Shown here piece after piece: positions 30,814 through 31,470 of a stretch of DNA of 64,000 nucleotides (positions are counted from its first letter, which is position 1; every line of letters starts with the position of its first letter). The DNA is from Escherichia phage YW01. The stretch lies in the sequence record PV018828, one strand, 5' to 3'. The notes beneath the pieces are model-generated. The model saw nothing but the letters and a program-made list of their open reading frames with translations. It did not search any database and had not been told where the DNA came from. A program made the position numbers and the translations under genes.

Positions 30814-31470
30814 TTAACTCTCCAAAGTTTTCTTCAGAGCTGCCCATGAGATTGGGTAAAGTTTAGCCATCTCTTCATCCAGAGATTGAGCAAACACTCG
30901 AACTTCATATTGAGCATGAGAGGAGAGTCGCTGACGACACAATTCAAACCAGCCATATAAAGAACCAGTCCACACCCACTCAGTGATCATCCCCTGAGGA
31001 AGAACAAATCGAGCTTGCTCTGGTGCAATAAATTCAATCAACTTGTCATATGCTGCTAGAGAAGCTTCATATGAATCGTTAATCAGCATTAATGCTTCAG
31101 CTCGCTCTCCGTCGATGAGTTGAACCCCTGAACCTGCATGGAGGTCCGAAGGTCTCGCAAAAATCTCTTTAGGGATGAAGACTTCAACTGCTCCATCTTT
31201 ATACCGCCGGGACATTTCGTTCCACGAGAATCCAACCTGATGCTTGCCCAACTGTCTCGCAATTGCAATAGGTGCTTTGCATCGGAAACTGACTTGCGGG
31301 TGTCGGAATGGAGTACAGTGTTTTTCCCGTGCAAGGAAGTTGATAAGTTTTGTGTCTCTCTCATTTAAGTCGCCTTCTCGAACAACACCGAAAGATACTC
31401 TAGCTGCATTGACTACAGATTTGTCACTACCCATTGCTTCAATCAGTGTTGCTTGTAGTTGTTCGTTCAA
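30814..31470 (-). CDS. thyX: flavin-dependent thymidylate synthase-like (ThyX family) with divergent active-site motif
   Basis: AARVSFG, TPF..KAPIAIARQ, SHAQYE blocks match ThyX; canonical RHR triad reads KHQ. Confidence 0.7.
   Translation of the reverse strand: MNEQLQATLIEAMGSDKSVVNAARVSFGVVREGDLNERDTKLINFLAREKHCTPFRHPQVSFRCKAPIAIARQLGKHQVGFSWNEMSRRYKDGAVEVFIPKEIFARPSDLHAGSGVQLIDGERAEALMLINDSYEASLAAYDKLIEFIAPEQARFVLPQGMITEWVWTGSLYGWFELCRQRLSSHAQYEVRVFAQSLDEEMAKLYPISWAALKKTLES

Follow-up and report, generated by a model that had tools for sequence, protein, structure and literature searches.

The signature RHRX7S (Myllykallio 2002) has served to define the ThyX family of flavin-dependent thymidylate synthases, to screen sequences in evolutionary work and to guide thinking on inhibitors. 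In the thyX gene product of Escherichia phage YW01 (PV018828), of which we analysed a stretch of 64,000 nucleotides (hereafter "the window"), this literal signature is absent, and only its His and Ser agree. The locus therefore raises the question of whether a ThyX protein that reads KHQ at the place of RHR still makes thymidylate from dUMP, or whether it has acquired another substrate or another product. A different pyrimidine or a hydroxymethylated product had been considered conceivable in an earlier note on this DNA, made from the sequence alone.

The phage gene encodes a full-length ThyX protein

The window represents a Kuravirus/phiEco32-like (Gordonclarkvirinae) E. coli podophage, and the 3 kb around thyX is 98% identical to TH38, 97% to ES17 and 95-96% to SU10 and Bas91. 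The features discussed here are collected in Table 1. The TTG start of thyX is credible because a ribosome-binding site is located at a suitable distance (Table 1), an in-frame TAA read from the sequence directly precedes the start, and the CDS annotated for thyX in Bas91 has the same length as the window ORF.

Table 1. Features of the thyX region and related loci, in window positions
Feature	Position	Strand	Basis
thyX, flavin-dependent thymidylate synthase, 218 aa, TTG start	30814..31470	minus	ORF list, Pfam, NCBIfam, AF2
Ribosome-binding site AAGGA, 8 nt 5' of the thyX TTG start	31479..31483	minus	read from sequence
Variant ThyX motif, aa 71-90, ARQLGKHQVGFSWNEMSRRY (ARQLG-K76-H77-Q78-VGF-SWNEM-S87-R88-R89-Y90)	31201..31260	minus	aligned to Tm A73..Y91
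K76-H77-Q78 codons, equivalent to T. maritima R78-H79-R80	31237..31245	minus	alignments
HNH homing endonuclease ORF between thioredoxin and thyX	31439..31909	minus	ORF list; ES17 annotation homing/HNH
Thioredoxin, conserved upstream neighbour of thyX in Kuravirus	31896..32174	minus	Pfam Thioredoxin E 1.3e-12
dCTP deaminase	33997..34530	minus	Pfam DCD E 3.5e-34; TIGR02274 107.7 bits (cutoff 92.8); phrog_1663
Deoxynucleoside monophosphate kinase	18187..19086	minus	phrog_139 E 2.2e-56

The proposal that the protein is a ThyX homologue along its full length was borne out. The Pfam Thy1 profile (PF02511) matched with E 6e-43 and 147.3 bits (cutoff 24.8), spanning 1-190 of its 191 positions; TIGR02170, the thyX equivalog of NCBIfam, gave 129.9 bits (cutoff 87.9). 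ThyX enzymes are homotetramers that bind FAD where three subunits meet; here, an AF2 model of the ligand-free monomer reached pLDDT 95.6 and pTM 0.89. When this model was searched with Foldseek, the best 50 PDB matches listed were all T. maritima ThyX (TM 0.77-0.82), including the ThyX-FAD-dUMP structures at TM 0.80-0.82; sequence identity to canonical ThyX is ~33%. Judged by family profile and predicted fold, the window protein is unambiguously a ThyX.

The gene itself is not new, being annotated as "thymidylate synthase ThyX" in dozens of published Kuravirus genomes, and it is conserved in all Kuravirus genomes that we sampled. With a dN/dS of 0.084 between the window phage and phage Bas91, phage thyX is under strong purifying selection.

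KHQ occupies the position of the RHR triad

HMMER alignments to the solved T. maritima and 6j61 ThyX proteins placed K76-H77-Q78 opposite R78-H79-R80, and MAFFT alignments gave the same match; the replacement of RHR by KHQ, as originally described, is thus confirmed. An RHR displaced to another register, which the earlier note had named as one of the findings that would refute its proposal, is not present near the motif. The spacing has to be amended, however. Where RHR-x7-S had been taken as the reference, the window protein reads K-H-Q-x8-S87, with one residue more before the catalytic Ser. This insertion is not exotic by itself, as a cellular Petrotogaceae enzyme and a Mycobacterium phage enzyme show RHR with x8.

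In a search of 5.8 billion sequences, K-H-Q was read in 119 of the 120 best-matching proteins, the most distant of which had 53% identity, and K-S-Q in the remaining one. The motif is therefore due neither to chance nor to sequencing noise. Several homologues have inteins inserted exactly inside the motif (…KHQxGx, then the intein C…VVHN, then S/C-WNE…), a placement that is typical of functionally critical sites.

KHQ belongs to a set of coupled changes in a large ThyX subfamily

A HMMER search that covered 1.84 billion cluster representatives returned 6823 related clusters. RHR was found in only 1 among the best 150 of these; the rest of the best 150 read [K/R]-[H/S/Y]-x, nearly always with x8 spacing, and their third triad position was free (Q commonest, also T, K, M, V, N and H).

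For the analysis of individual residues, 204 subfamily members of 195-250 aa were aligned to T. maritima ThyX, whose numbering (Tm) is used below; residue roles were assigned from two partly disagreeing literature sources and from what is known of the T. maritima structure. Under these assignments, each dUMP-binding or catalytic position is kept in at least 94% of the 204 members: Q75, E144, R147 and R174 are invariant (204/204), E86, S88, R90, Y91 and H53 are kept in 202-203, and R74 is Arg in 192. All of them are present in the window protein, as R72, Q73, E85, S87, R89, Y90, E151, R154, R181 and H51. On the FAD side, S30, T55 and H178 are largely kept as well, and the central His of the triad (H79) is found in 193/204 members. 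The two flanking triad positions are the ones that change. Position 78 is Lys in 188 members and Arg in 16, and position 80 is Gln in 166 of the 204, otherwise Thr, Lys, Val or His and rarely Arg.

Compared with canonical ThyX (TM0449/1O26, the T. thermophilus-like 6J61 and Dictyostelium Thy1), with which it shares the fold, the HMM families and the dUMP-binding and catalytic residues, the window protein carries KHQ instead of RHR (R78 to Lys and R80 to Gln relative to T. maritima), one residue more after the triad (x8), and the exchanges E58 to Arg, G89 to Arg and N163 to Ser. These differences recur together. All sampled variants have a non-acidic residue at 58, Lys or Arg at 78, a residue other than Arg at 80, R89 and S163, and they read S-R-R-Y where canonical enzymes read S-G-R-Y. 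In contrast, the sampled canonical enzymes (T. maritima, Dictyostelium Thy1, two Borrelia ThyX proteins, those of a Mycobacterium phage and Pseudomonas phage NP1, and Petrotogaceae P0261) all carry E58, R78 and R80, and all have Gly or Ala at 89 except for Petrotogaceae P0261, which has R89. Loss of Tm R165 (Mtb R190) was considered as a further signature and discarded as not diagnostic, since Dictyostelium and 6j61 have His at this position and Borrelia has Asn.

Among 86 representatives at 50% clustering, a basic residue was present at position 58 or at position 169, and never at both (0 with both, 19 with only 58, 55 with only 169, 12 with neither; Fisher p = 3e-11, not corrected for phylogeny). 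A loop motif, KQGS, is kept in 83 of 93 representatives of the wider clade and is absent from the subclade of the window protein (all matches with at least 53% identity). KQGS is not essential, since T. maritima ThyX also lacks it. On these alignments, KHQ is the hallmark of a large ThyX subfamily whose changes are coupled, and no peculiarity of the window phage.

The lost arginine charge appears to be relocated

Two roles have been assigned to the triad in the literature. According to a structural review, RHR mainly binds the AMP-phosphate, the FMN-phosphate and the ribityl chain of FAD, and its first Arg also hydrogen-bonds the isoalloxazine and touches dUMP. In another paper, direct hydrogen bonds to dUMP are ascribed to Tm R78, R80, S88 and R90, and it is reported that the side chain of residue 89 in the PBCV-1 enzyme can occupy the dUMP-phosphate pocket. 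From the residue pattern of the subfamily, it looks as if the phosphate-binding arginines have been relocated (R80 lost, R89 and either R58 or R169 gained). We speak of relocation of the phosphate contacts and not of their abandonment because basic residues reappear at 58 or 169 and at 89, a pattern that holds whichever of the two roles is assigned to RHR. It is plausible, on the same comparison, that the Arg gained at 89, beside the catalytic Ser, represents the relocated charge of R80.

Cellular and plasmid members of the subfamily

Peptide patterns specific to the subfamily, derived from a 12-sequence alignment, were used to scan GTDB, with a single genome for each species. The scan yielded 49 loci; the triad was readable in most of them and was almost always KHQ. 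On a complete 1.79 Mb Spirochaetia chromosome (OZ251568.1), a KHQ-type thyX whose product is 46% identical to the window ThyX closes a tight co-directional run of genes for a dihydrolipoamide dehydrogenase-type oxidoreductase, citrate synthase, an aldo-keto reductase and an SDR, and lies immediately beside pyrD, a fused pyrF/pyrE gene, pyrB and a gene resembling those for dihydroorotase. In Chloroflexota (SAR202-type), KHQ-type thyX is flanked by 2-oxoacid dehydrogenase genes on one side and a transporter gene on the other; in Poribacteria its neighbours are genes for an enolase-superfamily protein and an aminotransferase, and in Nitrospinota it adjoins IspH. Judging from these neighbours, KHQ-type thyX plainly sits in cellular housekeeping contexts in four bacterial phyla. 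Other loci of the scan are phage-like, with PolA, 5'-3' exonuclease, helicase or RNR, and many phages carry members of the subfamily.

A variant-type thyX (K-Y-V) is also present on staphylococcal plasmids, directly after the trimethoprim-resistance DHFR gene dfrE and within a transposon remnant. A published study of dfrE-thyX, the one functional test we found that involved a variant-type gene, reported no synergy with dfrE for trimethoprim resistance; its readout was resistance, not thymidylate synthase activity.

The cellular and plasmid variants show the same coupled signature as the window protein (K78, non-Arg 80, R89, Ser or Thr at 163, and the insertion) at 39-46% identity. They differ from it in three respects. 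The compensating basic residue of the cellular members is at 169 and not at 58, the cellular members keep KQGS whereas the Kuravirus-level subclade does not, and the genes are found in housekeeping or resistance contexts whereas the window thyX is part of a phage replication module. Because the subfamily is embedded in the pyrimidine and folate metabolism of free-living bacteria, a product other than dTMP is very unlikely.

In the searchable literature we found no assayed member of the K-H-x subfamily, and the ThyX proteins with a solved structure or genetic validation that we inspected were all of the RHR type. The Borrelia ThyX encoded on plasmid lp54 and Dictyostelium Thy1 were considered as validated proxies for KHQ enzymes and set aside; both are canonical RHR-x7.

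A probable route from dCTP to dTTP in the phage

Genomic association with pyrimidine or dNTP metabolism is present at the phage, the cellular KHQ-type and the plasmid loci. In the window, the thyX neighbourhood includes dCTP deaminase, a deoxynucleoside monophosphate kinase (Table 1) and, downstream, an amidoligase/GATase/ATP-grasp cluster. The earlier note had called these genes adjacent. They do share the strand and the early/middle block with thyX, but dCTP deaminase is 2.5 kb away, the kinase 12 kb, and the amidoligase cluster 8-16 kb. A pairing of ThyX with dCTP deaminase is also found in Dictyostelium.

The GC content along the window is 0.39-0.47, and that of E. coli is ~51%. We consider it quite likely that the phage protein is an ordinary ThyX that converts dUMP to dTMP with rewired arginine contacts, and that it feeds dTTP to a phage genome that is richer in AT than the host. 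In this scheme, ThyX would use methylene-tetrahydrofolate and reduced flavin, and some contacts of its active-site arginines would be rewired around an unchanged dUMP pocket and unchanged catalytic residues. dCTP deaminase, the presumed supplier of ThyX, would convert dCTP to dUTP, from which dUMP would be formed by host Dut or by a bifunctional activity. The dNMP kinase would then take dTMP to dTDP, and thioredoxin probably works with ThyX. The joint outcome would be a shift of cytosine nucleotides to dTTP for a ~42% GC genome in a ~51% GC host. This pool-shifting route is the simplest reading because of the gene neighbours and the lower GC content of the window. Our direct observations concern the family assignment, the fold, the conservation and coupled substitution of residues, purifying selection and the genomic contexts; from these we infer catalytic activity, retention of FAD, the move of charge to R88 (Tm 89) and the pool-shifting role.

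Restriction resistance and the composition of the phage DNA

The authors of the BASEL collection described the Gordonclarkvirinae as remarkably resistant to all tested restriction-modification (RM) systems and recognised no known modification pathway in them. They speculated on dU-DNA that would arise through dCTP deaminase and a nucleotidyltransferase. The word "thymidylate" occurs nowhere in that paper, and a thymidylate synthase is not mentioned. The phage has a conserved and selected ThyX, which argues against dU-DNA.

To what extent is resistance explained by a lack of recognition sites? Several sites are depleted in the window, namely CCWGG (1 observed vs 94 expected), CTGCAG (0 vs 18), GGATCC (1 vs 11), GATC (142 vs 305) and GAATTC (EcoRI; 7 vs 21). 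The sites of EcoRV (25 vs 21), EcoKI (9 vs 7) and EcoP1 (96 vs 104) are not. Site avoidance can therefore be only a partial cause of RM resistance, since it applies to EcoRI but not to EcoRV, EcoKI and EcoP1. Because the sites of the latter three enzymes are undepleted, something unexplained protects the phage DNA. At the same time, the depletion pattern in the sequence suggests ordinary DNA exposed to nucleases, for which such a pattern is typical, and would be hard to reconcile with a blanket replacement of thymine. In addition, the genome termini of phiEco32 were mapped by restriction profiling, and phiEco32 DNA must thus be cut by at least some enzymes.

The known routes to thymidine hypermodification, which proceed through 5-hmdU, use classical ThyA-family enzymes. 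Among the subset of window ORFs that we profiled, there was no match to 5-HMUDK kinase, aGPT-Pplase or other enzymes of post-replicative modification.

Alternative readings of the KHQ enzyme

One alternative keeps dTMP as the product and supposes that the flavin is handled differently, with weaker or exchangeable FAD, with FMN, or with a reductant other than NADPH (thioredoxin or a host flavin reductase). It has in its favour that the triad is described as the main FAD binder, that exactly these positions change and the dUMP-site residues do not, and that a thioredoxin gene is consistently found upstream of thyX in Kuravirus. However, nearly all members regain a basic residue at 58 or 169 and at 89, H79 and the other FAD-side residues S30, T55 and H178 are retained to the extent given above, and thioredoxin clearly serves phage replication in other ways, so that we regard a changed flavin chemistry as unlikely. 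The absence of the literal signature, in a phage whose host already supplies ThyA, could also be taken to indicate an inactive or decaying remnant or a non-catalytic role. We give this next to no credence in view of the low dN/dS, the invariance of the catalytic residues across hundreds of clusters, the maintenance of inteins at the motif, the confident AF2 model and the conservation of thyX in all sampled Kuravirus genomes. For an altered substrate, either dCMP or UMP, the precedent is the polyoxin enzyme PolB (4P5A, a UMP/dUMP methylase), which shows that the ThyX fold can accept UMP and which matches the window protein with E 2.9e-16. This match is worth only 62.6 bits, lower than those to true ThyX (109.4 bits to 6j61 and 88.4 to TM0449). 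Furthermore, R174 and R90 (uracil O4/O2), Q75 and position 78 (near the deoxyribose) show no change or only conservative replacement, dCTP deaminase yields deoxyuridine nucleotides and thus the canonical substrate, and the window offers no context of nucleoside-antibiotic biosynthesis. A change of substrate is in our view highly improbable.

A further alternative is an altered product, in which 5-hydroxymethyl-dUMP or another C5-substituted pyrimidine would enter the phage DNA and explain the resistance. In principle, water or some other nucleophile could intercept the exocyclic methylene intermediate described for ThyX, and an additional loop change (the loss of KQGS) sets the Kuravirus-level subclade apart. 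The resistance of the Gordonclarkvirinae to every RM system tested, the lack of a known modification pathway in them, the expected frequency of EcoRV, EcoKI and EcoP1 sites and the unexplained amidoligase/GATase/ATP-grasp cluster would all fit. Several observations speak against it. The KHQ signature is also found beside cellular genes of pyrimidine biosynthesis, every known hydroxymethylase is a ThyA-family protein, and no genes for downstream hypermodification were recognised by the BASEL authors. T-containing palindromes are strongly depleted, a pattern shared with phages whose DNA is unmodified, and phiEco32 DNA was restriction-mapped. We consider this reading very improbable. Were it to apply anywhere, it would be to the subclade at the level of Kuravirus, 7-11 and Rosemountvirus, where KHQ is combined with the loss of KQGS and where we see a slim chance that the enzyme releases a non-thymine C5-substituted deoxyuridylate such as 5-hydroxymethyl-dUMP; if true, this would explain the RM resistance of the Gordonclarkvirinae and provide the first ThyX-family enzyme that feeds DNA base modification. 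The suggestion of an altered substrate or product, with which the analysis of this locus had begun, is thus not upheld. The contacts to the dUMP uracil, deoxyribose and phosphate and the catalytic residues are all conserved, the subfamily occurs in housekeeping contexts (in one case beside genes of de novo pyrimidine synthesis), the triad mainly holds FAD according to the structural review, even though the other paper lists dUMP contacts for R78 and R80, the loss of R80 is coupled to the gain of Arg at 89, and the strong avoidance of several T-containing restriction sites would be unexpected under a global replacement of thymine.

Ordinary dTMP synthesis with relocated arginines remains our preferred reading. 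It removes one candidate explanation for the restriction resistance of the Gordonclarkvirinae and corrects the published speculation on dU-DNA, since a conserved and selected thymidylate synthase is encoded together with the dCTP deaminase.

Relation to the ThyX signature and to known systems

The literature that we searched contained no paper describing the K-H-x subfamily. One evolutionary study excluded sequences with more than two dissimilar residues relative to RHRX7S, and motif-based filters in general will miss K-H-x enzymes. The RHRX7S signature fails for a large subfamily, mostly viral and marine-bacterial, whose active-site arginines form a consistent alternative set. The same subfamily allows one to ask, from natural variants, which arginines are required in ThyX for the binding of flavin and dUMP.

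The dUMP and dCMP hydroxymethylases of phages SPO1, T4, ViI and M6 resemble the window enzyme in being phage-encoded, in acting on a pyrimidine dNMP with methylene-tetrahydrofolate and in their occurrence in a restriction-resistant phage group. They are ThyA-family proteins, however, with a fold and a mechanism unrelated to those of the window ThyX.

The closest relatives are the ThyX proteins of other Kuravirus/Gordonclarkvirinae phages (ES17, SU10, Bas91 and relatives of phiEco32), which are 93-98% identical and encoded at the same genomic position; the TH38 protein is the nearest, with 97.7% identity. The locus differs among these phages in the HNH homing endonuclease ORF between the thioredoxin gene and thyX, which is absent in some of them. 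In the window, there is a 32-nt overlap between this ORF and the start of thyX, and the ORF does not contribute to the enzyme. It is missing at the Bas91 locus, where the thioredoxin gene directly precedes thyX.

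Intein insertion and loop variation in ThyX

In homologues of the phage ThyX, inteins sit exactly inside the variant motif, 3 residues past the triad (P0122, P0196, P0244 and P0270, and also P0135 and L047), with junctions that read …KHQxGx↓CLTGDT…VVHN↓S/C-WNE…, where arrows mark the splice points. Such placement is the mark of a functionally critical site. A ThyX intein is named in the title of a 2004 paper.

The protein also lacks the KQGS loop motif and carries RPSDLHAGSG instead at amino acids 102-114 (about 31129-31167, minus strand). The motif is likewise missing from all 120 homologues with at least 53% identity to the phage protein and is present in 83 of 93 wider-clade ThyX representatives. 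Among canonical enzymes, 6j61 and the Dictyostelium ThyX have KQGS and the Thermotoga maritima ThyX does not.

A variant-type thyX also occurs on the Staphylococcus aureus plasmid pNTUH_1027 (L054), immediately after the trimethoprim-resistance gene dfrE. Its product, a putative thymidylate synthase, has a K-Y-V triad and a long insertion. The dfrE-thyX pair (4471-5669) lies within a Tn3-like remnant that has spread in staphylococci, Macrococcus and Exiguobacterium.

Genes around thyX

Features of the window other than thyX (all on the minus strand)
Feature	Coordinates	Strand	Remarks
DarG N-terminal macrodomain match	20133-20573	-	NF048014, E 3e-42, model positions 5-144 of 338
Second HNH/AP2-like ORF	28299-28793	-	
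Member of a "DNA ligase" PHROG, 109 aa, the size of a fragment	30073-30402	-	just downstream of thyX
77-aa protein, PHROG "anti-restriction nuclease" family	30565-30798	-	just downstream of thyX
HNH homing-endonuclease ORF	31439-31909	-	between thioredoxin and thyX; 32-nt overlap with thyX start
"Nucleotidyltransferase", 472 aa	34540-35958	-	adjoins dCTP deaminase
Conserved amidoligase cluster	38891-46292	-	

The HNH homing-endonuclease ORF inserted at the thioredoxin/thyX junction is present in the related phage ES17 and absent at the same site from Bas91. The amidoligase cluster encodes a gamma-glutamyl cyclotransferase, a RimK-like ATP-grasp protein ("S6 glutaminyl transferase"), a class-II glutamine amidotransferase, an Amidoligase_2 protein and a phiEco32-type COOH-NH2 ligase; judged by this content, it looks like a peptide- or amide-bond-forming system, and no evidence ties it to thyX.

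Restriction sites and candidate counter-defence genes

Site counts over the window (1-64000) were compared with order-2 Markov expectations. Some short palindromes proved extremely avoided, namely CCWGG (1 observed versus 94 expected), CTGCAG (0 versus 18), GGATCC (1 versus 11), GATC (142 versus 305) and GAATTC (7 versus 21). By contrast, the counts of GATATC, AGACC and the EcoKI site match expectation, and CAGCAG is over-represented (77 versus 42), so the published phage resistance to EcoRV, EcoKI and EcoP1 cannot be put down to site avoidance.

The 77-aa "anti-restriction nuclease" family protein could have a bearing on the restriction-modification resistance of the phage group. The BASEL authors suggested that the nucleotidyltransferase might relate to DNA modification; this protein has its own PHROG, and its sole domain match, to a poly(A)-polymerase head domain, is weak and below the cutoff (E 7.5e-4). 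The ORF at 20133-20573, which carries the annotation "phosphatase" in relatives, resembles the N-terminal macrodomain of DarG, a DNA ADP-ribosyl glycohydrolase antitoxin; plausibly, the phage uses it to counter host defence by DarT-type DNA ADP-ribosylation.
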